The notes beneath the pieces are model-generated. The model searched no databases and was not told the DNA's origin. It saw only the letters and a list, made by a program, of their open reading frames with translations. A DNA stretch of 59,039 nucleotides, taken from a virus (taxonomy: Duplodnaviria > Caudoviricetes). A program made the translations under genes and the position numbers. The number at the start of each line of letters is the position of its first letter. Position 1 is the stretch's first letter. Below are positions 1 to 50,151 of this stretch, piece after piece. The stretch lies in IMG/VR virus record IMGVR_UViG_3300036985_002412, positions 1 to 59,039 of that record. One strand, 5' to 3'.

Positions 1-127
1 TTATTCTAAAGTAGAGTATAAAATACAAGATTTTACAGAATGCAGTGGCTCATTTATAAATTGTAAACCAGGCGAATATTCTTGCAGAAGAAAAACAATA
101 GAATCTGGCGATTTAACATTTCCTAAA
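1..127. repeat. 127-bp exact direct repeat, copy 1 (copy 2 at 33447-33573)
   Basis: TTATTCTAAAGTAG...ACATTTCCTAAA is identical at both places and diverges at the next base (C vs G). Confidence 0.95.
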
Positions 128-149
128 CAATTTAAAAACAAATAAGATT

Positions 150-851
150 ATGAAAAACATACACATATTACCAACAGATAAACCAAGTAGGTTATATCAA
201 TTAAAAAATGATATTCTAAGATTAGATTATAAAATTGATAAAGGTGAAGCCAATAAACACATCTACATCACTTCTGATGAAGAAATTAAACCTAATGTAT
301 ACGCTTTAATTAATAAAGTTTTATGTAAAACTGAATTATTAGAGGGTAGAATTGTTTCAAGACAATTAGTAGGTGGTGCAACTATGGATATTTGTAAAAG
401 TGAATATTTAGAAATCATCCTAAGCACAGACCAAGACTTAATCAAAGATGATGTACAAGCTATTGATGATGAGTTCTTAGAGTGGTTTGTTAAAAATCCA
501 AGTTGTGAGTGGGTTGAGATTGAAAAATCAACAAACACCGCTGATAATATTGATAGTAATATACCTACTATTCCTTGGACTTTTTATAAAATAATCATTC
601 CAAGTGAAGAACCTAAACAAGAAACAACTCTTGAAGAATTTATTGAATCACAACCTTATTATGGCACTTGTACTTATGAATATAAAGAAGGTATTGAAGT
701 AGGTGCTAAATGGCAACAAGAAAGAATGTATAGTGAGGAAGAAGTTGAGGATTTTATCTATAAAGTTTGTGGCACAGTAGCAAGACTACAAGGAATTACA
801 TTAAATGGTAATCATATAGATACTGCTTATAAACAATTTAAAAAGAAATAA
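150..851 (+). CDS. hypothetical phage protein (mini-cassette; GAKWQQER-YSEEE module)
   Basis: 233-aa ORF bounded by junction repeats; C-terminal module shared with 33070..33363. Confidence 0.8.
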   Translation: MKNIHILPTDKPSRLYQLKNDILRLDYKIDKGEANKHIYITSDEEIKPNVYALINKVLCKTELLEGRIVSRQLVGGATMDICKSEYLEIILSTDQDLIKDDVQAIDDEFLEWFVKNPSCEWVEIEKSTNTADNIDSNIPTIPWTFYKIIIPSEEPKQETTLEEFIESQPYYGTCTYEYKEGIEVGAKWQQERMYSEEEVEDFIYKVCGTVARLQGITLNGNHIDTAYKQFKKK

Positions 852-855
852 GATT

Positions 856-922
856 AGTAGATATGCAGAAGTTTGGGTGTAGCCACCAAGTTAAAAACGA
901 GAGGTGCTTCTGTATGTCTATT
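856..922 (+). ncRNA. putative structured non-coding cassette
   Basis: AGTAGATATGCAGAAGT pairs with GCTTCTGTATGTCTATT using G:U pairs; lies between two junction repeats. Confidence 0.4.
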
Positions 923-1512: not shown

Positions 1513-1767
1513 ATGACAGAACAGCAAATACAAACTAAAATTAAAAAGAAACTCCAGGAGCGAGGTTGGTTTGTAACCAAACTAATTAAAACCTCCACAA
1601 ATGGCATTCCAGACCTTTTAGCAATCAAATACGGCAAGGCTATGTTTATAGAAGTCAAACGAGAAAACGGCAAACTCGAACCCTTACAACAGACGCGACT
1701 CGAGGAACTAACCCAAGCTGGAGCAATTGTTAAAGTCTGGAGCGATTATGAAGTTGACTTTAAATAA
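1513..1767 (+). CDS. VRR-NUC domain nuclease
   Basis: E..IQ, GIPDLL, FIEVK and Q motifs of the PD-(D/E)xK VRR-NUC family. Confidence 0.85.
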   Translation: MTEQQIQTKIKKKLQERGWFVTKLIKTSTNGIPDLLAIKYGKAMFIEVKRENGKLEPLQQTRLEELTQAGAIVKVWSDYEVDFK

Positions 1768-1892
1768 CGTTTTGCAACTACACGTCTGTTGCGTAAAAAC
1801 ACAAAATTATCTTTCAGTTTAACACGGAATTGAAAGGTACAAAACAAATATTAAATTAATCACAATGTAGCAATAGCGTGTAATTGCTGTTA
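1765..1892. repeat. attC-like hairpin A1
   Basis: TAACgttttGCAACTACACGtCTGTTGC ... GCAATAGCGTGTAATTGCtGTTA. Confidence 0.85.
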
Positions 1893-1907
1893 TAACTCGT
1901 TTTTCTT

Positions 1908-2165
1908 ATGAAAACATTATTAATTACTACAATTTTAATTCATTTATTTTTCACAATAATATCATTTGTGATAAATTACAAAAAAGCAACAGAGCCCTAT
2001 TATGTAAAAGATGCTCTGTATGATTTAGGACTTTGTTTAATTCCAGCTGTAAATATTGCGTATGTGTTTTTAACTTTTTATGAAAGTTATTTAGAAAAGC
2101 ACTTTAATAAAATAACTTTCAATTTTAAAAAATGGTCATCTTTTATGGATAAGCGTTTAAAATGA
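1908..2165 (+). CDS. small membrane protein (cassette cargo)
   Basis: Two hydrophobic segments; segment ends GTTATAACTCGTTTT / AAAATGAGTTATAAC. Confidence 0.7.
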   Translation: MKTLLITTILIHLFFTIISFVINYKKATEPYYVKDALYDLGLCLIPAVNIAYVFLTFYESYLEKHFNKITFNFKKWSSFMDKRLK

Positions 2166-2169
2166 GTTA

Positions 2170-2298
2170 TAACGTTAAACGGCTTTGTGATGTTGCCGAA
2201 AATACACACACTAACTTTAAATTAAAAACTAAACAATGAAAACACAAAATGACAATTCAGTTAAGCCAGAAGTAGGCAATAGCACAAAACCGCTGTTA
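2170..2298. repeat. attC-like hairpin A2
   Basis: TAACgttaaaCGGCTTTGTGATGTTGCC ... GGCAATAGCACAAAACCGctGTTA. Confidence 0.85.
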
Positions 2299-2679
2299 TC
2301 TTCTCGGCTTTTAAAATTCCGAGCTTTTTCAAATGAAACAAAAAAAATGATGGATTGGGACTTTATAAGGTCAGTAAATAATCTAACTAAATTAATATCA
2401 CTAAACCACGTTGATGTTTCTGAATTTATAGGATTGCACGACAAAAATGGTAAAGAAATATACGAAGGAGATATTCTTTGTGATTACAGACTTGATGGTA
2501 CTTATCGGCTGTTTAAAATTTTCAGAGGAAAAGGCGGTTTTGTTTTTAATACCCACCAAGACGATTTTAAAAAACCTATTGAGCAAATTCTATTTACTGA
2601 AAGTTGTTCAGATATGCAAAATGCTGGTTTTTTAGAAACTTGTGAAATAGAAGGTAATATTTGGACGTACGTTTGGTAA
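2236..2679 (+). CDS. YopX family protein (cassette cargo; start inside hairpin loop)
   Basis: KFRAF, GLHDKNGKEIYEGDIL and EIEGNI motifs typical of YopX. Confidence 0.85.
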   Translation: MKTQNDNSVKPEVGNSTKPLLSSRLLKFRAFSNETKKMMDWDFIRSVNNLTKLISLNHVDVSEFIGLHDKNGKEIYEGDILCDYRLDGTYRLFKIFRGKGGFVFNTHQDDFKKPIEQILFTESCSDMQNAGFLETCEIEGNIWTYVW

Positions 2680-2688
2680 GCTGGAAGA

Positions 2689-2815
2689 TAACGTTTCTCG
2701 GCTTTGCTTTGTTGCGGAAAAGTAAGCCAAAATTATCGATTAAAAAACAATATTAACAAACACAAACCGAACATTGAATTATGCCCAAAACCGCAATAGA
2801 GCAAAACCGATGTTA
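2689..2815. repeat. attC-like hairpin A3
   Basis: TAACgtttcTCGGCTTTGCTTTGTTGCGG ... CCGCAATAGAGCAAAACCGAtGTTA. Confidence 0.85.
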
Positions 2816-2830
2816 TAAGTAGCTTTTATT

Positions 2831-3322
2831 ATGGACCAAATTAAACAATTAAAAGATTATTGTGATGAAATTTCACTTGATGATTTACGATTTGTCAAAG
2901 TAAGACAAAAAATAGAAAAAATGCACGAACAAAACAATATAACAATTATTGATTTTATAAAGCAAAAAGAATATGATTTATCTGTTCGTGCAAAAAATGT
3001 ATTAAAATACGCTTCACATTTATATACTTATATGAATGAACTTTCGGTTATTAAATTAGTAAAAATTAGAACTGTTGGTTTAAAAAGCGTAAAAGAAATT
3101 ATACACGTTTACCCTAATTTAGAAAATGAAGTTGGGCATTTAACGAGTATTACAATAAGAGAACATTTAAACAAAGAAGTATTAGCATTTGTTGAATTTG
3201 TATGCTCATCTAAAAATCAAATAGGTTATCACGAAGAAATGAAAAAGTGGTATATTTATGGTAAAGGGTTATGGGTAGATAGTGAACAATTATTTTGGTA
3301 TTTTAACCGCAATGTTGAGTAA
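2831..3322 (+). CDS. protein with RNA polymerase alpha-CTD-like domain (cassette cargo)
   Basis: LSVRAKNVL...LVKIRTVGLKSVKEI resembles the alphaCTD consensus LSVRSxNCL...LLKIxNxGxKSLxEI. Confidence 0.7.
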   Translation: MDQIKQLKDYCDEISLDDLRFVKVRQKIEKMHEQNNITIIDFIKQKEYDLSVRAKNVLKYASHLYTYMNELSVIKLVKIRTVGLKSVKEIIHVYPNLENEVGHLTSITIREHLNKEVLAFVEFVCSSKNQIGYHEEMKKWYIYGKGLWVDSEQLFWYFNRNVE

Positions 3323-3367
3323 AGTTACTTATAACTCCAAAATTCACGCTATAAAAGTATTACAATT

Positions 3368-5034: not shown

Positions 5035-5121
5035 AATCGGTTAATGTAATTGGATATAAATCCAACTTGGGAAACATCCGCTTTTATAGTGGGAATAGAG
5101 GTTCAAATCCTCTACCGATTA
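5035..5121 (+). tRNA. tRNA-like element, atypical or pseudo
   Basis: Acceptor stem AATCGGT/ACCGATT; T-arm AGAGG-TTCAAAT-CCTCT; anticodon-like stem around TTTTATA; D-region enlarged by an extra hairpin. Confidence 0.5.
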
Positions 5122-6641: not shown

Positions 6642-7331
6642 AGAGTTACTATTCCAACCTATTTAAGTGAGATTAAATTATCTCAGTACCTAAGATATCA
6701 AAAGGTTATCGCTGATAATTCAGACGATGAGACCTTTGTATGTATTCAAATGGTGGCTATCTTTTGTAATTTAACAGTTGCCGAAGTTATGAAAATTCCT
6801 GTTAATGATTTCGGGGAAATCGTTGAAACATTAGCGAAAGTATTGGATCAGAAACCCGCACTCGTTAGAACTTTTAAATTAAATAAGGTTGAGTACGGAT
6901 TTATTCCAAACTTTGAGAAAATAACCTTAGGCGAACACGCAACGATTGACACGTTACTCGGCAAAGATGAGAATTTAGCCTTATTAATTTCGGTAATGTA
7001 TCGTAAAATAACTAAAAAGGTTTCTGTCTTTTACGAGATTGAGGAGTACGATGGTGACGAAAGCAAAGCGGAACTTTTTAAAGACGTTCCAATGGATGTA
7101 GTAATAGGTTCTATGCTTTTTTTTTGGACTTTAAACAAAGAATTATTATCGAATATCCTATTACATTTGGAGAGCAAGGCAGCGAGGGAGGGACTGAATT
7201 TGGAGGAAGCTTTGGAGAGCGTTGGGGGTGGTATCAAACTTTTATTCGACTGTCGAGAGAACTTAGAATCCACGTTAGAGAAATTGGAAGAGAGCCTCTT
7301 CACGAATCACTCACGTTATTATCTTACTTAA
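6639..7331 (+). CDS. putative tail assembly chaperone
   Basis: First gene of the structural operon; T9 slippery run at 7117-7125 with an overlapping -1 ORF. Confidence 0.6.
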   Translation: MRVTIPTYLSEIKLSQYLRYQKVIADNSDDETFVCIQMVAIFCNLTVAEVMKIPVNDFGEIVETLAKVLDQKPALVRTFKLNKVEYGFIPNFEKITLGEHATIDTLLGKDENLALLISVMYRKITKKVSVFYEIEEYDGDESKAELFKDVPMDVVIGSMLFFWTLNKELLSNILLHLESKAAREGLNLEEALESVGGGIKLLFDCRENLESTLEKLEESLFTNHSRYYLT

Positions 7332-7384: not shown

Positions 7385-7836
7385 AATCATTTTATAAAAC
7401 AATCGACTATATTAAAACCACTTTGGAGGGTGCTCCGTTATTGAATACGATAACTCACGGAACAGATATAATCGATAACGTTAAAAAGAATATATTCCCT
7501 TTGGCTCACATAAATGTTATGAGCTCAAGCATCAACGCTGGAGTTGTTAATTTCACATTTGAAATCGCAATACTCGATATTCGTAATATCTCAAAGGTAA
7601 AATATAAAGATAAGTTTTTAGGAAATGATAATGAACTCGATAATTTGAACACGTGTCACGCTATTTTGAACTATATGATTATGTCGATGCGAATGAAGCG
7701 AAACGATAACGATATTGAGTTAATGAATGAGCCAACGTTGCAACCGATTTTGATGGCTTTCACAAATGCGTTAGACGGTTGGAAGTGCGATATTGAGTTA
7801 AGTATTCCGAATAACGATTTTGATGTTTGCTGTTAA
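7381..7836 (+). CDS. putative tail terminator/completion protein
   Basis: Size, FPLAHI motif and position in the structural operon. Confidence 0.5.
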   Translation: MKSFYKTIDYIKTTLEGAPLLNTITHGTDIIDNVKKNIFPLAHINVMSSSINAGVVNFTFEIAILDIRNISKVKYKDKFLGNDNELDNLNTCHAILNYMIMSMRMKRNDNDIELMNEPTLQPILMAFTNALDGWKCDIELSIPNNDFDVCC

Positions 7837-42378: not shown

Positions 42379-42879
42379 ATGGACAAAATCACAATTGACA
42401 GAATTAAAGAAGCGCATCCTCGTTTGCGAGAAAAAATGCTTAAAGATTATACTGCCGCTAACAATTTGTTAGGCAAAGGAGTTCGTCTGCGATTTGCTTA
42501 TGTTTTTAGAAGCAATGTTTTGCAAGACAAATTGTATAATCAAAGACCTAAAGTTACTAACGCCAAAGGCGGTCAATCCATCCATAACTACGGTTTGGCT
42601 TTTGACATTGTTTTGCTGTATGATAATGATGGAAATGGCACTTTTGAAGAGGCAAGTTACTCTATGATCAAAGACTACGACAAAGACAGTATTGCCGATT
42701 GGAAAGAAGTTACAGACTATTTTAAGTCGCAAGGTTGGGAATGTGGTGCCGATTGGAAAAACTTCAAAGACGCTCCTCATTTTGAATACAATTATGGTTT
42801 TGACTGGCGCACCCTAAAATCAAGAATTGACAAAGGATTGATTATAACTGATAACGGAATTACATACCCAAAAATTTAA
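42379..42879 (+). CDS. endolysin, M15 family peptidase
   Basis: R..Q..LY, VTNAKGGQSIHNYGLAFD and DAPHFE motifs. Confidence 0.9.
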   Translation: MDKITIDRIKEAHPRLREKMLKDYTAANNLLGKGVRLRFAYVFRSNVLQDKLYNQRPKVTNAKGGQSIHNYGLAFDIVLLYDNDGNGTFEEASYSMIKDYDKDSIADWKEVTDYFKSQGWECGADWKNFKDAPHFEYNYGFDWRTLKSRIDKGLIITDNGITYPKI

Positions 42880-42882
42880 GTT

Positions 42883-43446
42883 ATGGTAAATTATATTCAA
42901 ACAATAAGAAACCTTGCAATAGTTATATTAATCGGAATAGGTATTTGGTTTTACAAAGATTGGCAATTTCAAAAGTCAGAAAATATTCGCCAGACTGAAA
43001 ATATGCGACAAGTTAGAATAGCTGATAGTTTACGATTTTCAAGTCAAATAGTCAATTCTAACGAACTAAAAGATTATTTGCAATATCAGAACTCGGATTT
43101 ACTTAATAATCTCTCAAAAGAGGGTATAAAAACAAATAGGGTAAAAGAAATTGTAAGCACTAATTATGTATATCGAGATACTACTTATACAGAACACAAA
43201 GAAAAAAAATTTACTGATAGCACTAAATGTTTAACAATAAAAGGAACTATAAATCCCAATGGAACTGTTTCAATTACTGATAGAAAATTTACTAATAAAA
43301 CAGATGCTGTTGCTTTCTGGGAAAGAAAACAATGGAGTTTTTTAGGAATTAAATCAAGGTTTTTAGGCAAAAAACAAATGAGTGCAAAAGTGTATAATGA
43401 ATGTGGTGAAAGTCAAATAATTAAGATAGAAAAAAAAGAAAATTAA
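42883..43446 (+). CDS. putative spanin (Rz-like)
   Basis: N-terminal TM anchor directly after the endolysin. Confidence 0.5.
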   Translation: MVNYIQTIRNLAIVILIGIGIWFYKDWQFQKSENIRQTENMRQVRIADSLRFSSQIVNSNELKDYLQYQNSDLLNNLSKEGIKTNRVKEIVSTNYVYRDTTYTEHKEKKFTDSTKCLTIKGTINPNGTVSITDRKFTNKTDAVAFWERKQWSFLGIKSRFLGKKQMSAKVYNECGESQIIKIEKKEN

Positions 43447-43463
43447 AAATATTTTAAAAAAAA

Positions 43464-43570
43464 TTTGCATTATATAAAAAAAGTTTTGTAAGTTTGTACC
43501 CAGCAAGTAGGACAGCTATAAGAAATCAATTTATCCAATCGTTTGAGAAGTCCTACTCTCTTTCGGTTGG
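43464..43570 (+). promoter_or_regulatory. TTTG / TAAGTTTG promoter with pseudoknot-like leader, upstream of cassette array 2
   Basis: -33 TTTG at 43464, -7 box at 43489; AGTAGGAC is complementary to GTCCTACT in the loop of the CCAATCG/CGGTTGG hairpin. Confidence 0.65.
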
Positions 43571-43604
43571 TTTTTTATTTAAAATTAAAATTACAAATGT
43601 ACAC

Positions 43605-43731
43605 TAACGTTTTGCAGCTAATCGACAGGTTGGGATTAAATAGTACAAACTTTAAATAACAGATAAAATGAGTAAAGAAAACGAAAACTTAAATGAAACA
43701 GAAAACTCGGCATTGAATATAGGTGCTGTTA
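43605..43731. repeat. attC-like hairpin B1 (degenerate)
   Basis: TAACgttttGCAGCTA ... TAGGTGCtGTTA; upper stem pairs poorly. Confidence 0.65.
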
Positions 43732-43955
43732 GCGGTTCGTTGCTTTCATTCGAGGAAATTATGAATGAGGCAAAAAGAGTAAAGGAAAATGTCAAAGCAT
43801 TCCCATTTCACGATGTATCATTTCAGTATGGTGCAGAATGGTCAAGAGATATTTTGATTGAAGAAATTAAACGTAGGCAAGAATTGATAATTTCAGAACC
43901 TGATGGAATTGTTCGAGAAACGATGATTGCTAATTTGTTGGTTGGTCTGCAATGA
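43668..43955 (+). CDS. hypothetical cassette protein
   Basis: Starts in the hairpin loop; segment ends GTTAGCGGTTCGTTGC / GCAATGACCGCTAAC. Confidence 0.7.
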   Translation: MSKENENLNETENSALNIGAVSGSLLSFEEIMNEAKRVKENVKAFPFHDVSFQYGAEWSRDILIEEIKRRQELIISEPDGIVRETMIANLLVGLQ

Positions 43956-43959
43956 CCGC

Positions 43960-44083
43960 TAACGTTTCGCGGCTTTGTGCAGGCGGGAAAATAAAACCTA
44001 ATAATTGAATTAAACACTAATAATAAAAATATACCAAATGACTGAATTAAAGACTAATGCCCGCTTGCTCAAAACCGCTGTTA
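43960..44083. repeat. attC-like hairpin B2
   Basis: TAACgtttcGCGGCTTTGTGCAGGCGGG ... CCCGCTTGCTCAAAACCGCtGTTA. Confidence 0.9.
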
Positions 44084-44841
44084 TGTGTAGGGCGGTTGAT
44101 AATTTAGAGTTGCTTAAAACGCAAGCTGATGAAAGTGTTGATTTAATTTACTGCGACATTCTTTATGGAACAGGTAGAAATTTCGGTGATTACCAAGATT
44201 TAAAACCGAATAGAAGCGAAATAGAAGCACATTATGAACCACGATTAAGAGAAATGCACCGAGTATTAAAAAGCACAGGGAGTATTTATTTACAAATGGA
44301 TTATAGAATAGTGCATTGGATTAGAATTTTGATGGATGATATATTTAATTATAAAAATTACATTCAATCTATTTATTGGAAATATAATGCAGGAGGGAAA
44401 CATAAAGATAAATTTAAAACTGTTACTGATGAAATTTTATTTTATTCAAAAACAGAAAACAAGTGTTTTTATCCTGAAAGGGTTATGATACCTCATCATC
44501 CTGATACATATAGACGAATAAAAGGATATGCGAATGCTGGAATAACCATAAATATAAATGGAAAACAGCGTGAAAATTTATGGGATTTTAATGCTGTAAA
44601 AAAAGGCAATTATACTAAAATCAATGCCGAATATGTTGATTATTCAACTCAAAAGCCAAAAGCATTGATTGAAACAATAATTAAGGCAAGTTCAAACGAA
44701 GGAGATACCGTTGCCGATTATTATTTAGGTTCAGGAACAACCGCAGTAGTATGTAAAGAATTGAACCGAAATTTTATTGGTTGCGACATTAATCCAAAGG
44801 CTATTGAAATTACAAATGCTCGTTTAGATGCAGTTTCGTAG
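44038..44841 (+). CDS. N6/N4 DNA methyltransferase (cassette cargo)
   Basis: VDLIYCDILY (variant DPPY), YSTQKP and DYYLGSGTT motifs. Confidence 0.85.
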   Translation: MTELKTNARLLKTAVMCRAVDNLELLKTQADESVDLIYCDILYGTGRNFGDYQDLKPNRSEIEAHYEPRLREMHRVLKSTGSIYLQMDYRIVHWIRILMDDIFNYKNYIQSIYWKYNAGGKHKDKFKTVTDEILFYSKTENKCFYPERVMIPHHPDTYRRIKGYANAGITININGKQRENLWDFNAVKKGNYTKINAEYVDYSTQKPKALIETIIKASSNEGDTVADYYLGSGTTAVVCKELNRNFIGCDINPKAIEITNARLDAVS

Positions 44842-44850
44842 CCTTGCACA

Positions 44851-44977
44851 TAACGGTTGCGGCTTGTATCGTCGTTGCGGACTTCGTAACTACAAAATTT
44901 CATCTTAAAAATAAATATAATGCGAAACGAAAATATGATTGAACCACAAAATCCGCAATGCGTACAAGCCGTTGTTA
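44851..44977. repeat. attC-like hairpin B3
   Basis: TAACggttgCGGCTTGTAtCGtCGTTGCGGA ... TCCGCAATGCGTACAAGCCGttGTTA, with two extrahelical T. Confidence 0.9.
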
Positions 44978-46371
44978 CTGGCTGTTTCTCTCGTGTAGTA
45001 GATACTGGTTCAGATTTTAGCGGAGTTGGGGCATTTGATCAGGCACTTGAAAGATTAGGAATTAAACAAAATAAAAAGTTTGCTTGTGATATGGATAAAT
45101 ATGCAAGACAGACTTATATCTACAATTTTGGAGAACCTGATTATTATCCTGAAAATGTTTATGATCGTAAAATACCAAAAGAAAGTTTAGATATTTATAT
45201 GACTTCGCCTCCTTGCCAAAGTTTCTCACTTGCTGGAAAACGCAAAGGCGAAGATTCTAAAAATGGAGTTTTGTTTTATAATTCACACGAATTTATTGTA
45301 AAAAACAATCCTCGTTATTTCATTTTTGAAAATGTAAAAGGATTACTTTCTGATGATAACGGAAAAACGTTTCAAAGATGGATTGATTATTTAGGAGGTA
45401 AATCAGTAAATGGAAATCCTGTAATATTCCCTCACGAAAACGCAACACCGTATCACGTTTATTATCAGGTTATGAATGCTAAACATTACGGAGTTCCTCA
45501 AAACCGTGAAAGGATTTTCATTATAGGGATTCGTGATGATGTAGATAATACTTTTACTTTTCCAAAACCATTTCATTTAATTAAAAGATTGAAAGATGTT
45601 TTAGAAAGTGAAGTTGATGAAAAATATTTTTTGAGCGATACAATGCTTACTTGGATTGATAAACATAGAGAAAAAAGAAGTAGTTCAGGAAAATATCCAT
45701 TTACAGAAGAAGATGAGTATAGCGGTTGCATTACAGCACGATATAATAAAATGGGTGCAGAAGATATATTTATTGGAGCAATACGAGGTCGAAATCCACA
45801 AAATCCATTAAGTAGAGTTTCAGGATTGCCAACTGAACAAATGCTTGAGATAAACGAAAACGGAACTTCAAACGCATTAACAACGGTTCAAAAAGATAAT
45901 GTGGTTATAATTCCTGCTAATAACTCAAAAGGCTATGATATTGCAGAAGAAGAAGAAGATTCTATAAATTTTTCAAATCCAAATTCAGAAACTAGACGTG
46001 GTAGAGTTGGCAAAGGAGTAGCACAAACATTAGATACGAGTTGTAATCAGGGAGTTTTAGTAAAAAATGACGCTTATATTTTAGGATATACAAGGGATAA
46101 AAAAGGAAAAGTTACAAAAAGAAATCCTTTAAATCATTCAAATACAATTCATACTTCAACTGGAAGCGGAGGAAATACAGACCAATTCGCTATTTGTAAC
46201 CAAAGAATCCGTCGATTAACCCCAAAAGAATGCTTTGCTTTAATGGACTTCAACGAAGATTTCAAATGGGATGTTTCCGACAGTCAAGCCTATAAACAAG
46301 CAGGAAATAGTATTGTTGTAGCTTGTTTAGTTGAGATTATAAAACGTCTTGATTTACGTAAACCGAAATAG
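44920..46371 (+). CDS. C5 cytosine DNA methyltransferase (cassette cargo)
   Basis: FSGVG, SPPCQSFS, FENVKG, QNRER, RRLTP and QAGNS motifs. Confidence 0.95.
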   Translation: MRNENMIEPQNPQCVQAVVTGCFSRVVDTGSDFSGVGAFDQALERLGIKQNKKFACDMDKYARQTYIYNFGEPDYYPENVYDRKIPKESLDIYMTSPPCQSFSLAGKRKGEDSKNGVLFYNSHEFIVKNNPRYFIFENVKGLLSDDNGKTFQRWIDYLGGKSVNGNPVIFPHENATPYHVYYQVMNAKHYGVPQNRERIFIIGIRDDVDNTFTFPKPFHLIKRLKDVLESEVDEKYFLSDTMLTWIDKHREKRSSSGKYPFTEEDEYSGCITARYNKMGAEDIFIGAIRGRNPQNPLSRVSGLPTEQMLEINENGTSNALTTVQKDNVVIIPANNSKGYDIAEEEEDSINFSNPNSETRRGRVGKGVAQTLDTSCNQGVLVKNDAYILGYTRDKKGKVTKRNPLNHSNTIHTSTGSGGNTDQFAICNQRIRRLTPKECFALMDFNEDFKWDVSDSQAYKQAGNSIVVACLVEIIKRLDLRKPK

Positions 46372-46375
46372 CCAG

Positions 46376-46500
46376 TAACGTTCCCTCGCTTTGTGATGTT
46401 GCAAAGTTCGGAACTGCATATTTTCCGCTACAAATAAACGTGATGCGAACCGTAAACGTCAATTTACTACATAATTTGCAATAGCACAAAACGAGTGTTG
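46376..46500. repeat. attC-like hairpin B4
   Basis: TAACgttccCTCGCTTTGTGATGTTGCAAA ... TTTGCAATAGCACAAAACGAGtGTTG. Confidence 0.9.
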
Positions 46501-46599
46501 GCAGTAGTTTTTTTGATGTTAGGAAAATTTTACTAACTATTTAATGTCTAAAGGTGTCGAATTCGACAAGTTTAGGAAAACTTTACTAAAAATAATATT

Positions 46600-46878
46600 A
46601 TGGCTAAAAATTGGACAACCGAAGAAGAAGAAATTATTAAACAAGAGGTTTTAAAAAACCCTAATAATTTAAGAGAAGCATTTTTTATTGCTTCATTGAA
46701 AACTGGAAGAACTGCTACATCTGTTTGCACCCGATATTACGGAGCGATGAATGAAGAAAAAGAAACCAAAGACGAGCAAATAAAGAAATTATCAATAGAA
46801 ATTATAAAACTTTATGACTTGAATTTAGAGCTAAAACAACAACTTGAAGATGCAACAAAAGCTAAATTTATTAATTGA
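46600..46878 (+). CDS. Myb/SANT-like DNA-binding protein (cassette cargo)
   Basis: WTTEEEEII...GRT..SV..RY. Confidence 0.6.
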   Translation: MAKNWTTEEEEIIKQEVLKNPNNLREAFFIASLKTGRTATSVCTRYYGAMNEEKETKDEQIKKLSIEIIKLYDLNLELKQQLEDATKAKFIN

Positions 46879-47308
46879 TAAGAAATTTAATTATAAGGAT
46901 AAGATTATCAGTATAACTAAATGGAAAAAAGTAGGAGTTACTTATGTTGTTTTTACAGATAGGCAAACTTATAATTTCTTTGAAAATGAAATAGATTTAT
47001 TTATTGAGGAACTTCTTCCGGTAAGAGTAAAACTAAAAGAAGGGGTTTTAGAAAAAAGACAATTAGAGTTAAAAAATGTATCAATACAAGTAAAAAAAGA
47101 CGAACTCAACACTAATAAAATGGAAGAAAACGAAAAAAATATTGTACCAATACAAGAAAATGATTTGAGTGTAATTCTTTTAGATACTATTCAAAAAGTG
47201 CAAAAAGACAAAACTTACATTAATCAAGCCAATGCAATTTGCAATGTAGTTTCTCAAATGATTAACATAAAAAAACTCGAATTACAATTGGCACGCAATG
47301 TTCGGTAA
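46844..47308 (+). CDS. hypothetical protein (second gene of cassette B4)
   Basis: 154-aa ORF ending just inside the cassette end. Confidence 0.7.
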   Translation: MKMQQKLNLLIDKKFNYKDKIISITKWKKVGVTYVVFTDRQTYNFFENEIDLFIEELLPVRVKLKEGVLEKRQLELKNVSIQVKKDELNTNKMEENEKNIVPIQENDLSVILLDTIQKVQKDKTYINQANAICNVVSQMINIKKLELQLARNVR

Positions 47309-47317
47309 AATTACTGC

Positions 47318-47442
47318 CAACGGTTCTCGGCTTTGCGATGGTGGGGTTTCAAGGCACAAATGTTCAACCCACAACTAATGTTTAATAGAATTACAAATGA
47401 TGAATTTACAACTTCCTCCCCACTATTGCAAAACCGATGTTA
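47318..47442. repeat. attC-like hairpin B5
   Basis: CAACggttcTCGGCTTTGCGATGGTGGGG ... CCCCACTATTGCAAAACCGAtGTTA. Confidence 0.9.
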
Positions 47443-48179
47443 TGCGTAGTGTTTTAGTCCACGCTGATTGCTTTGATGTGTTTCCATACATTGCTGATAA
47501 AAGCGTAAATCTTATTTTATGCGATTTGCCTTATGGTACTACCGCTTGTAAATGGGATAGTATTTTGCCTTTTGAAAAACTTTGGAATGAATACGAAAGA
47601 ATAATAACCGATAATGGTGCAATAGTGCTAACGGCATCACAACCATTTACGAGTGCTTTGGTAATGAGTAATCCAAAAATGTTTAAACACGAATGGATTT
47701 GGGAAAAACAAAAGGCAGCAAATTTTATGAATATGAAAACTGCTCCTGCAAAATACCACGAAAACATATTGGTATTTGCAAAAAACACTCCAACTTATAA
47801 TCCTATAATGTGGCAAATAGAAGAAAGCAAACGAGATAAAAGAAAAACTGTAAATAACCCAATTACTAATAAAGATTGTCATTTAGGGGAAATTGTAAGA
47901 ACAAGAAAAGAAGATGATGGAAGTAGATACCCAAAAAGTATTTTAAAAATTGACAAAAGCATAAATAAAAATTTGCACCCAACAGCAAAACCTTTGGAAC
48001 TTATGCAATACTTAATCAAAACATATTCAAATGAAGATGATGTAGTAATGGATAATTGTATGGGTAGCAACACAACAGGTTTAGCTTGTAAAGAGTTAAA
48101 TCGTCAATACATAGGAATTGAAAAAGAAAAAGCGTATTATGATATTTCAGTCAAACGAGTTACGGAGTGTCTGTTCTAA
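47397..48179 (+). CDS. N6/N4 DNA methyltransferase (cassette cargo)
   Basis: ILCDLPYG, HPTAKP and DNCMGSNTTG motifs. Confidence 0.9.
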   Translation: MMNLQLPPHYCKTDVMRSVLVHADCFDVFPYIADKSVNLILCDLPYGTTACKWDSILPFEKLWNEYERIITDNGAIVLTASQPFTSALVMSNPKMFKHEWIWEKQKAANFMNMKTAPAKYHENILVFAKNTPTYNPIMWQIEESKRDKRKTVNNPITNKDCHLGEIVRTRKEDDGSRYPKSILKIDKSINKNLHPTAKPLELMQYLIKTYSNEDDVVMDNCMGSNTTGLACKELNRQYIGIEKEKAYYDISVKRVTECLF

Positions 48180-48188
48180 CATTACGCA

Positions 48189-48314
48189 TAACGTTATCTC
48201 GCTTGGCGAGGTTGGGAAAAATAAGCCCAAATCATCTTATTTAAAAACTATAAAACCAAGTACAAAATGAACAATAAATTAAGCCAAATACCCAATCTTG
48301 CCAAACGAGTGTTA
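48189..48314. repeat. attC-like hairpin B6
   Basis: TAACgttatCTCGCTTGGCGAGGTTGGG ... CCCAATCTTGCCAAACGAGtGTTA. Confidence 0.9.
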
Positions 48315-49268
48315 GTGGCTGATGTGGGATTGAAAGAAAGATGTCTTATTTCATTCTCTGGTGGCGAAACTTCCGCTTATATGTTATGGTGGTTATTAAC
48401 TCATAAATCTGATGTTTATGATTTTGTAATAATATTTGCTAATACTGGGCAAGAAAATGAGCAAACTTTAGAATTTGTTAGAAATTGTGAAACTCATTTT
48501 GGTTGTAAAATTGTATGGGTTGAAGCTGTGCCAAGAATGTTTTTTCAAGGCAAAGTAAATAAAGTAGAAGATTGGTTAAACAATATCCAAATTATAAAAT
48601 GGATTGGAAAAAAACTTGGGACAAAACACAGAGTTGTAAATTTTGAAACAGCTAATCGTGATGGAAAAGTTTACGAGACTGTAATTGCGAGATACGGAAT
48701 ACCAAATGCGGCTGGAATATTTTGCACAAGAGAATTGAAATTAAGACCTATAACTTCATATTTGAGAAGTATCGGATGGAAAAAAGGAACGTACCAATCA
48801 GCAATAGGAATTAGAGCTGATGAATTTGACAGAATGAATAAAGATAGAGTTAAAGAAAAACTTTATTATCCTTTGATAAAAGACCAACCAATGACAAAAC
48901 CTAAAATTAATTTTTGGTGGAAATTACAGCCTTTTAGATTAGAATTGAAAGGTTATCAAGGAAATTGTAAATGGTGCTTTAAAAAATCAGATAATAAACT
49001 TTATCAATTAGCACAAGAAACGCCTGAAATATTTGAATTTCCTGACAGAATGGAACAGATTTATGGAAATTGGATTCCACCCGATAGATTAGCTGAATTG
49101 ATTGAAAAAGGAAAAGAAATACCAACAAATATTAAGTTTTTTAGAAACCATAAATCAGCAAAAGATATTTTAGAAAACTCAAAAACATTTGATAAAAACG
49201 TGAAAGATGATAGTGATGTTTATGATGATACAGAGAGTTGCGATATATACGCAGAATGTGGTTCTTAA
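48267..49268 (+). CDS. PAPS reductase-like / adenine nucleotide alpha-hydrolase protein (cassette cargo)
   Basis: SFSGGETS PP-loop, FANTGQE, CTRELK, GIRADE and GNCKWCFKK motifs. Confidence 0.8.
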   Translation: MNNKLSQIPNLAKRVLVADVGLKERCLISFSGGETSAYMLWWLLTHKSDVYDFVIIFANTGQENEQTLEFVRNCETHFGCKIVWVEAVPRMFFQGKVNKVEDWLNNIQIIKWIGKKLGTKHRVVNFETANRDGKVYETVIARYGIPNAAGIFCTRELKLRPITSYLRSIGWKKGTYQSAIGIRADEFDRMNKDRVKEKLYYPLIKDQPMTKPKINFWWKLQPFRLELKGYQGNCKWCFKKSDNKLYQLAQETPEIFEFPDRMEQIYGNWIPPDRLAELIEKGKEIPTNIKFFRNHKSAKDILENSKTFDKNVKDDSDVYDDTESCDIYAECGS

Positions 49269-49278
49269 ACGTAAACGA

Positions 49279-49344
49279 ACATTTGCCACTAACTACTATA
49301 TGTAAAAAAAATGTGCGAACACTAATAAACTTAATGCCTAACAA
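49279..49344. other. candidate attI-like primary recombination site
   Basis: Last cassette end ACATTTGCCACTAAC is not followed by a hairpin; TAAC ends 51 bp before the integrase ATG. Confidence 0.55.
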
Positions 49345-50151
49345 ATGGAAATTCCTAAGTACCTTGTTTTATATCGGAAAGAATTAACCTTAAAAGGATA
49401 TTCTGAAAATACTATTAAAAATTATGTTTCACAGGTAGATTTATTTTTAAGAGGACATAATCAGTTGTTTACAGAACCATCTAAAATAAATGAAGAAGCA
49501 ATAAAAACATGGCTACTTCAATTTAAAACTAAAAATTCAATGTGTCATAGCATTTCAGCTTTGAAATTATTTTATAAGATGGTTATAAAGCAACCTATGA
49601 AATTTCGTTACATTGAATATCCTCGTTCTGAAAAGAAACTGCCTAAAATTATTGAAAAGGAATTTTTGTTAATCCAATTGAATAAAATCAAAAATAGCAA
49701 ACACAAAGCACTTCTTACAATGACTTATTCTACAGGAATGAGAGTTTCAGAAGTTATTAATCTTTTGATAGCTGACATAGATAGTAAGCGCATGATTATT
49801 TTCATTAGAAATTCAAAAGGCAATAAAGATAGAATTGTTCCATTAAGCCAAAAAGTTTTAGAATTATTACGTATTTATTATTCTGAATATAAACCTAAAG
49901 AATATTTATTTAATGGTCAAGGAGATAATATTCAATATTCCGAAACAAGTTGTAATCAATTGGTAAAAAAATACATTGGAAAAGAATATCATATGCATTT
50001 GCTTAGACACTCAAATGCTACAGCACTTCTCGAAGCAGGAACAGACCTTAGATATATTCAAAAACACCTTGGACATTCAAACGTTAAAACTACAGAAATT
50101 TACTGCCATGTAAGTACAAATATGCTTTCAAAAATGGCATTACCAATTTAA
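49345..50151 (+). CDS. tyrosine recombinase with N-terminal SAM-like domain (candidate cassette integrase)
   Basis: Catalytic R (GMRVSE), K (SKGNKDR), HxxR (HLLRH), H (LGH) and Y (TTEIY) are intact; YSENTIKNY N-domain. Confidence 0.95.
   Translation: MEIPKYLVLYRKELTLKGYSENTIKNYVSQVDLFLRGHNQLFTEPSKINEEAIKTWLLQFKTKNSMCHSISALKLFYKMVIKQPMKFRYIEYPRSEKKLPKIIEKEFLLIQLNKIKNSKHKALLTMTYSTGMRVSEVINLLIADIDSKRMIIFIRNSKGNKDRIVPLSQKVLELLRIYYSEYKPKEYLFNGQGDNIQYSETSCNQLVKKYIGKEYHMHLLRHSNATALLEAGTDLRYIQKHLGHSNVKTTEIYCHVSTNMLSKMALPI

Follow-up and report, generated by a model that had tools for sequence, protein, structure and literature searches.

The complete genome of a Flavobacterium-type phage (IMG/VR record IMGVR_UViG_3300036985_002412; 59,039 bp, CheckV completeness 100%, with genes nearly all on the + strand), to which we refer in its full length as the window, carries two arrays of short gene-bearing units that each begin with an imperfect hairpin, and the larger of these (array B, six units) stops just upstream of the gene for an intact tyrosine recombinase of 268 amino acids (aa), located at 49345..50151 on the + strand. 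We regard array B as a phage-borne, integron-like cassette platform in which this XerA-like recombinase would be the catalyst, working on a folded DNA strand, and in which the cassettes are inverted with respect to those of classical integrons; we assign this reading a probability of about two in three. It is built on the observed anatomy of the units, the conservation of that anatomy, the junctions that border the units, and the natural gain and loss of such units in relatives. Site-specific exchange at the AAC of the hairpins commands, as such, more confidence than does the full mechanism.

The six hairpins of array B lie on the + strand at 43605-43731, 43960-44083, 44851-44977, 46376-46500, 47318-47442 and 48189-48314, are 124-127 nt long, and begin with YAACG and end with TGTTR. 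From the YAACG end each proceeds through a 4-5-nt bulge, a stem of ~19 bp with fixed irregularities, and an A-rich loop of ~75 nt to the complementary arm that leads into TGTTR. A first-pass annotation, made by a model from the nucleotide letters alone, had described these six YAAC...GTTR hairpin units of about 125 bp, and the covariance model R1, which was made from the nine hairpins of the 59-kb record, recovers them together with three more in array A (1765-1892, 2170-2298 and 2689-2815, + strand); these are exactly nine sites, and the next best match in the record has an E value of 0.65. Hairpin B1 (43605..43731, R1 score 83.8 bits), the first site of the integrase-proximal array, is attC-like, and its crossover point would fall after the AAC at 43608. 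Compensatory changes occur in 17 of the 24 stem pairs among the nine sites (the shuffled mean was 9.3, and 0 of 500 shuffles scored as high), and in an alignment of 147 sites the terminal TAACG/TGTTA is nearly invariant while the inner pairs covary. As in the attC sites of integrons, then, imperfect hairpins with AAC/GTT boxes keep their structure and vary in sequence. One of the hairpins, queried by BLAST against 50,697 phage records, gave no match.

The segments that follow the hairpins show a private complementarity of their ends. The first and last ~11-15 nt of a segment pair only with each other in 9 of 9 window units, which extends what had been noticed for the six units of array B, and when the 3' end of a unit is folded with its own hairpin, an uninterrupted helix of 16 bp, to which YAACG/TGTTR and 11 cassette-specific pairs contribute, forms in all nine, in line with the expectation that circularizing a unit would rebuild one continuous stem. 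The mean free energy of the folded DNA (dG) is -24.3 with own ends versus -16.3 for the 72 non-own combinations. In the arrays of relatives, 102 segments lie between hairpins detected in succession, and 74 of them have a score that equals or exceeds the 99th percentile of non-own pairs, with a control of adjacent units reaching a maximum score of 6 against an own-pair mode of 10; some of the 28 segments that have no private match probably span an undetected hairpin.

Both window arrays open with YAAC and a hairpin and close with a segment, its private end and a YAAC, with no hairpin after it. There are accordingly N hairpins for N segments, which fits a unit composed of a hairpin and the segment behind it, opened at the AAC on the 5' side. 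This definition is modestly backed by the linkage of hairpins to genes in 20 homologous segment pairs from different contigs, among which the upstream loop was the better kept in eight and the downstream loop in two, with four pairs identical on both sides and a few in which both hairpins differ. A separate observation concerns the Polaribacter phage P12002L (L201; numbers with the prefix L denote related loci and contigs), in which the gp37 cassette (about 6960-7125, minus strand) has 15-nt paired ends identical to those of window unit B4 (46497-46511 and 47307-47321) around unrelated cargo, so that the private ends may belong to families, or one cargo may give way to another between unchanged ends. 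Likewise, copies of hairpin A1 (1765-1892) that are 92-95% identical occur in L038, L157, L030 and L137 beside unrelated genes, with a homology that starts at YAAC and stops at or slightly beyond GTTR; a hairpin can thus move, or be conserved, independently of its cargo.

The last AAC of array B ends at 49293 and the ATG of the recombinase gene stands at 49345, which leaves the 51 nt between them that the first-pass annotation had counted. The boundary region (49290..49344, + strand) consists of an attI-like junction, TAAC|TACTATATGTA..., and the integrase leader, and similarity between phages starts sharply at the TAAC. In viral contigs, 80 loci were found whose integrases are 45-95% identical to the recombinase, and in 38 of 38 inspected loci a YAAC, with TACTATATGTA or a near variant of it next in line, stands at a fixed distance before the integrase start; to the right of this junction the loci can be aligned with each other, and to the left they cannot. 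When the motif is relaxed to YAAC, any two bases and [AT]AT, loci with an integrase of 60% identity or more contain it in 28 of 30 cases from viruses, 10 of 10 from metagenomes and 3 of 4 from genomes (41 of 44 in total); for integrases that are 45-60% identical the counts are 20 of 35 and 29 of 42, and for random windows 137 of 5000. The YAAC| junction is thus placed as an integron attI is, as an insertion site beside the integrase gene.

The hairpins respect this geometry. R1 detects 172 of them in 81 sources (the 80 integrase loci and L201), all on the integrase strand and more than 20 in a row in L002. A count with a hidden Markov model in 78 loci placed 138 hairpins upstream of the integrase, 0 downstream and 1 on the opposite strand, although more DNA had been searched downstream (641,562 bp) than upstream (483,514 bp). 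The proposed likeness to the attI/intI arrangement therefore held up well in the relatives. Gene direction in the phage arrays is a different matter, and one that the first-pass annotation had not raised. In integron cassettes a gene precedes its attC, and reading from a shared promoter runs away from the integrase; here the genes read toward the integrase and the hairpin comes first. The longest open reading frame (ORF) lies on the hairpin strand, reading toward the integrase, in 250 of 296 phage segments and on the other strand in 2. Read on its other strand, array B has the integron order of integrase, attachment site and units that each close with a hairpin, with genes antisense to the usual direction.

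Comparison of relatives provides a view of how the arrays change. L001, which encodes an integrase 95% identical in protein sequence, agrees with the window in the gene preceding the array and in the region of the integrase, but no part of the 5.7-kb array matches. Individual units, on the other hand, can be recognized elsewhere as wholes: the entire B5 unit, and nothing else, has a homologous counterpart in L176 and in L186 (in the latter over unit-relative -5..871 of 871), the homology of B2 to L175 and L102 ends at the last base of the unit, and the L004 cassette that matches B3 does so at 91.7% identity, compared with 76.7% for the DNA of the integrase regions. Hairpins that are 93-95% identical adjoin unrelated genes. 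The pair L005/L008 was considered as an example of reordering and was dropped, as the two have a 16-nt cassette end in common and no cassette.

Gain and loss can be followed most directly in the cultured Polaribacter phages Freya_1 to Freya_10 (records of 43,978-48,920 bp), which encode a 271-aa integrase. When the region before the integrase was compared between six isolates and Freya_10, the flanks were found to be 99.5-100% identical and the differences to consist of blocks. Freya_1 lacks 4,942 bp that are present in Freya_10; Freya_2 and Freya_5 lack shorter right-hand parts of the same stretch, Freya_9 lacks only the last unit, and from Freya_8 some 900 bp are missing as an internal block. 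The block borders of these five phages fall on YAAC, at composite Freya_10 coordinates 6079, 6921, 7823, 10714 and 11021, the last of these being the pre-integrase junction, with a right border at the YAAC that immediately precedes a conserved ACCCCTATAAC... in front of the integrase start. Freya_6, with 441 bp of its own, has less exact borders, and its left match runs 12 nt beyond the YAAC at 7823. Where Freya cassette ends are similar, the last differing base stands before the AAC, which places the exchange inside the AAC or immediately behind it. Relatives in this way show units gained and lost precisely at this triplet, as had been proposed, and they support, as judged from aligned genomes, a recombination of cassettes at that site.

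The enzyme that we hold responsible has a SAM-like and a catalytic domain (PF13495 and PF00589) and, by motif position, a complete catalytic set (R133, K158/K161, H218, R221, H244 and Y253). Its best NCBIfam match is NF040815, the XerA type of "site-specific tyrosine recombinase/integron integrase", at 180.8 bits against a cut-off of 220, and it falls below every Xer cut-off (XerD, 158 bits vs 330; XerC, 155 vs 335). Against the models of integron integrases it scores 146 bits with TIGR02249 (cut-off 265) and 94 bits with NF011946 (cut-off 435). The alignment to TIGR02249 is in two pieces, with positions 179-252 covered by only 28 residues of the recombinase and ~46 positions left uncovered. 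Matches in the PDB include XerA (4A8E) and IntI4 (2A3V). On the latter structure, VchIntIA, 38 recombinase residues face 85, whereas the enzyme is collinear end to end with the XerA of Pyrococcus abyssi. By these alignments the IntI-specific insertion is absent and the enzyme is not an IntI, as the first-pass annotation had said. The 14 control genomes contain no IntI above cut-off. In metagenome-assembled genomes of Acidobacteriota (L234-L280), homologs of the integrase with 37-39% identity are multicopy, one genome having six or more, a multiplicity that suggests a separate mobile element with a related enzyme.

Which strand is folded can be read from the wobble pairs of the hairpins. In the 147 aligned sites, G.T cells number 416 and A.C cells 22, and two of the G.T pairs hardly vary; one strand is therefore the folding strand. 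In the phages this is also the coding strand of the same 250 of 296 segments, and as the folding strand is transcribed, a role in messenger RNA (mRNA) is possible. The hairpins might then be regulatory or processing elements of transcripts (leaders, terminators or RNase sites), with the genes between them being swapped by homologous recombination between the repeats. Exchange of this kind between repeats has been proposed for the promoter-stem-loop cassettes of T4-type phages. The A-rich loops, which hold the start codon of the longest ORF in 6 of 9 window units, would suit such a role, as would the nearly identical hairpins beside unrelated genes and the hairpins that have sometimes been swapped on both sides of a conserved gene. 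Homologous recombination would, however, leave unexplained both the cassette-specific complementarity of the ends and the position of the borders, on the final three bases ahead of a junction that has no hairpin at its right, and no hairpin family of Rfam was matched at the gathering threshold, nor at E values up to 1 over 43400-49400.

The chromosomes of bacterial relatives speak more directly to this point. A homolog of the recombinase with 39-47% identity and a frame of 375-390 aa (an XerA-type core with about 100 extra N-terminal residues) is encoded in 59 of 151 sampled Flavobacteriaceae genomes, and three of four such homologs that were tested pass NF040815. In the arrays beside them (L212, L214, L215 and L227) the genes come after the integrase in the same orientation, and behind every gene stands a hairpin that folds on the opposite strand; the same geometry is found in 11 of 20 further loci (L378-L397), where 31 of 31 matches fit it. 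The fold is thus conserved where the folding strand is antisense to the genes, and the conserved fold is therefore a feature of the DNA and not of mRNA. For these reasons we consider a transcript origin of the arrays quite improbable, even though a regulatory role could coexist with recombination. On comparative grounds the conserved fold points to single-stranded DNA as the likely substrate, as in integrons. The first-pass annotation had placed the system in Bacteroidota phages; a phage family does exist, but it is not confined to phages, since Flavobacteriaceae chromosomes carry homologs and arrays in another geometry. Several of the chromosomal contigs (from Flavobacteriaceae and other Bacteroidota) end shortly past the integrase, as repeats would cause.

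The mechanism that we propose from these features begins with a cassette made up of a ~125-nt imperfect hairpin and one or two genes, the start codon often lying in the loop. Strand exchange would occur at the 5' AAC of the hairpin, and in the circular cassette the ends of the unit would meet, whereby the stem would be lengthened by the cassette-specific ~11 bp. Cassettes would enter and leave at the fixed YAAC|TACTATATGTA site 51 nt upstream of the recombinase gene as well as between hairpins. The recombinase would act on the folded + strand, much as IntI acts on the bottom strand of attC, with the long outer stem perhaps providing a complete duplex arm that substitutes for the IntI-specific domain.

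A number of findings weigh against this reading. The recombinase is without the insertion that the integron literature, in the parts available to us, makes part of the definition of an integron integrase and holds to be necessary for integron recombination. For the window phage, the activity of the recombinase and the existence of circular cassettes are predicted steps. The linkage of hairpin to gene is imperfect (8 of 20 pairs keep the upstream loop better and 2 the downstream one). Gain and loss in nature, as described above, was seen in a distant integrase clade, the Freya enzyme being 34% identical to that of the window, and no near-identical variant of the window phage turned up in the scans of viral contigs and metagenomes; the metagenome scan produced at least 518 relatives of the integrase, the closest being 87% identical among the matches listed, and none was near enough to show gain or loss in the lineage of the window. 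Among sequencing runs, one contains the stretch and may be where it came from, and 23 runs of 13 further studies share 12-21% of its sampled words, small proportions to which we attach no evidential weight. Many arrays, moreover, are found without the enzyme. A pattern scan of viral contigs found at least 120 with the hairpin pattern, and in 3 of 120 loci selected in this way an integrase homolog was present among the matches listed. Of 27 hairpin-bearing virus records, 2 have the integrase and only 6 any tyrosine recombinase; among the 13 records with a completeness of 90% or more, none has the integrase. Array A of the window itself is without a nearby integrase. Arrays of this kind might be served in trans by enzymes of the host, or many of them might be inactive, or the hairpins might have a second purpose. 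Finally, the enzyme may also, or instead, serve lysogeny, because some of its relatives sit in proviruses or bacterial contigs. A lack of co-occurrence between the sites and this integrase, which the first-pass annotation had named among the grounds for refutation, is thus partly seen. Of the integrase loci with at least 1.5 kb upstream, 39 of 57 have a hairpin within 3 kb.

The last of these points can be developed into an alternative in which the recombinase is an ordinary lysogeny integrase and the neighboring site its attP, with cassettes that pile up there being moved in trans by homologs of the host or representing relics. It would account for the 25 of 27 hairpin-bearing records that have no integrase, for the frequency of homologs in Flavobacteriaceae chromosomes and the arrays beside them, and for the integrase-bearing relatives that are classed as proviruses or found in large bacterial contigs; in the available text of a study of the Freya phages their integrase is likewise taken as a sign of a temperate lifestyle (PMC8776804, Bartlau et al.), and in that text a search by term did not find the words hairpin, cassette, indel or variable region. 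Against this stand the junction beside the integrase, which uses the AAC of the hairpins and is bordered on its left always by a cassette end, and the strict geometry, with 138 hairpins upstream and none downstream. The Freya blocks, furthermore, sit exactly at the junction in the genomes of free phages. Lysogeny as the sole function of the enzyme seems to us unlikely, and a role in lysogeny would be compatible with the cassette role that we favor.

Arrays of this kind have been encountered before, under a different interpretation. In a screen of 10,705 phage genomes with IntegronFinder and with HattCI plus Infernal, Qi et al. (2023; PMC9892861) report, in the parts of the article available, 17 CALINs, which are clusters of at least two attC sites with no integrase nearby; one of these is in phage P12002L, is accompanied by methyltransferase genes, and is treated there as composed of stray integron parts. 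IntI1 inserted one of two tested P12002L sites into attI1 in E. coli, at G|TT (PMC9892861, same parts). By eye and with a crude scanner, the P12002L sites are YAACG...TGTTR hairpins with private ends, of the same kind as those of the window; this scanner is unspecific (8 matches in the window, 6 of them true, versus 0-3 in shuffles) and was used as a pointer only. R1 finds no match in P12002L at E values up to 0.1, the loops there being far shorter or longer. The P12002L cluster thus resembles the window in its Flavobacteriia phage host, its methyltransferase cargo, the type of its sites and the one cassette with the 15-nt ends of B4, and differs from it in having no integrase and in its short or very long loops. 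Given that the P12002L cluster has already been reported, hairpin sites in such phages are not new. The main text of PMC9892861, as far as it was available, describes no Xer-like recombinase, attI-like site, inverted orientation or phage-wide family, its supplements being outside our reach, and a literature search found no paper describing this recombinase-array system, though the supplements of Qi et al. and Bartlau et al. may hold lists of sites. The suggestion that canonical models could miss the system consequently applies to the integrase, which is below the IntI cut-off, and not to the sites, one set of which was flagged as attC by HattCI/Infernal in the accessible portion of that study.

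The same report lends some weight to the possibility that the sites are simply ordinary attC derived from bacterial integrons, in a plain CALIN beside a recombinase that is there by coincidence: attC were called in P12002L, IntI1 used one of them, and the R boxes bear AAC/GTT cores. Coincidence is difficult to reconcile, however, with an order of array, junction and integrase that recurs across dozens of diverged loci, with a gene orientation opposite to that of integron cassettes, and with the continuous 16-bp outer helix and one-sided 4-5-nt bulge that recur in 147 sites. The host phylum, in addition, is very poor in integrons of the IntI type, with almost no complete integrons in Bacteroidetes according to the consulted parts of the IntegronFinder 2.0 report (PMC9024848). 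We give this explanation very little credence for array B. Array A (1765..3335, + strand), in which three cassettes close with the TAAC at 3332-3335 and no recombinase adjoins (the nearest is 46 kb away on the linear record), is the only one of the two that has the composition of a CALIN.

The integron-like platform that we prefer shares with integrons the arrays of single-gene units parted by imperfect AAC/GTT hairpins, the pairing of the first bases of a unit with its own distal box, the fixed insertion site by a tyrosine recombinase gene with the array upstream and the folding strand in the sense of the integrase, and the complete turnover of arrays between close relatives. It differs from them in a recombinase that has no IntI domain and scores best as XerA-like, in genes that read toward the integrase from behind a hairpin that often contains the start codon, in a cassette-specific stem that extends ~11 bp and not ~4 bp beyond YAAC, in the one-sided bulge of the hairpin, and in being carried by a phage. 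Canonical attC sites have a central unpaired spacer. In comparison with Xer/dif systems, the window recombinase is similarly short, two-domain and collinear with XerA, and a duplex arm of ~11 bp lies outside the exchange point; however, there is no conserved dif-like 28-bp site, the arms are cassette-specific, and the scores are below the XerA, XerC and XerD cut-offs. A folded single strand is used by an Xer-type enzyme in the case of the CTX phage, according to the part of PMC3442271 available to us, but the element in the window is an array of many units and not a single integration. The Flavobacteriaceae chromosomal loci, with an integrase and then gene-then-hairpin units on the same strand, are reminiscent of archaeal integrons and of the reverse-orientation integrons of Spirochaetota, whose attachment site is downstream; the integrases of those integrons carry the IntI domain, unlike the enzymes considered here, and the phage array is upstream.

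The cassettes of array B all lie on the + strand. B1 (43609..43963) combines its hairpin with a 95-aa ORF (43668-43955) of no Pfam family. B2 (43964..44854; hairpin 43960-44083) and B5 (47322..48192; hairpin 47318-47442) each encode an N6/N4 DNA methyltransferase, at 44038-44841 (PF01555, E 1.4e-47) and 47397-48179 (PF01555, E 3.3e-32), respectively, and B3 (44855..46379; hairpin 44851-44977) encodes a C5 cytosine DNA methyltransferase at 44920-46371 (PF00145, E 1.1e-63). B4 (46380..47321; hairpin 46376-46500) has two small ORFs, at 46600-46878 (weakly Myb-like) and 46844-47308 (no family), and B6 (48193..49293; hairpin 48189-48314), which closes with the TAAC at 49290-49293, has a PAPS-reductase-like gene at 48267-49268 (PF01507, E 9.8e-6). 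The ORFs of array A are located at 1908-2165 (no family), 2236-2679 (YopX) and 2831-3322 (like the C-terminal domain of the RNA polymerase alpha subunit). DNA methyltransferases account for 41 of 150 sampled cassette ORFs, and the Lar restriction-alleviation protein for 1 of the 150; the methyltransferase cargo suggests an exchangeable store of anti-restriction functions.

Integrons have been defined by the IntI domain that is held necessary for recombination of folded attC, and have been seen as bacterial and lately also as archaeal, with phages carrying only stray fragments. Here a recombinase that does not have this domain occupies the integron position across dozens of phage lineages, beside arrays that bear every mark of cassette exchange, and entire cassettes at such a site distinguish cultured phage isolates that are otherwise almost the same. 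If it is the catalyst, more kinds of enzyme can run a cassette platform than had been supposed, phages would gain a means for the fast swapping of methyltransferases and other counter-defense genes, and Polaribacter phage Freya and its host would offer a tractable system. A broader interpretation, to which we would give even chances, is that Bacteroidota and their phages harbor a large unrecognized integron-like family based on XerA-like recombinases without the IntI domain, in chromosomal and phage architectures, with start codons inside the phage hairpins and swappable anti-restriction stores. Were this so, hairpin-based cassette capture would need no IntI domain, and would have arisen twice or predate IntI. 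These results also suggest that integron searches based on the integrase undercount such systems in Bacteroidota.

Some smaller features of the window can be added. Array B sits between a gene for an endolysin-type peptidase (42379-42879) and the replication block. Within 43440-43600, just before its first hairpin, a promoter-like pair of the Bacteroidota type (TTTG ... TAAGTTTG) followed by a stem and a T run can be made out by eye. The only match to Rfam at the gathering threshold in the window is a tRNA gene at 5035-5121. In both N6/N4 methyltransferase cassettes an in-frame ATG comes right after the GTT of the hairpin (44081-44086 and 47440-47445); a start at this codon would yield a typical methyltransferase N-terminus, the alternative being the ATG that lies upstream in the loop.

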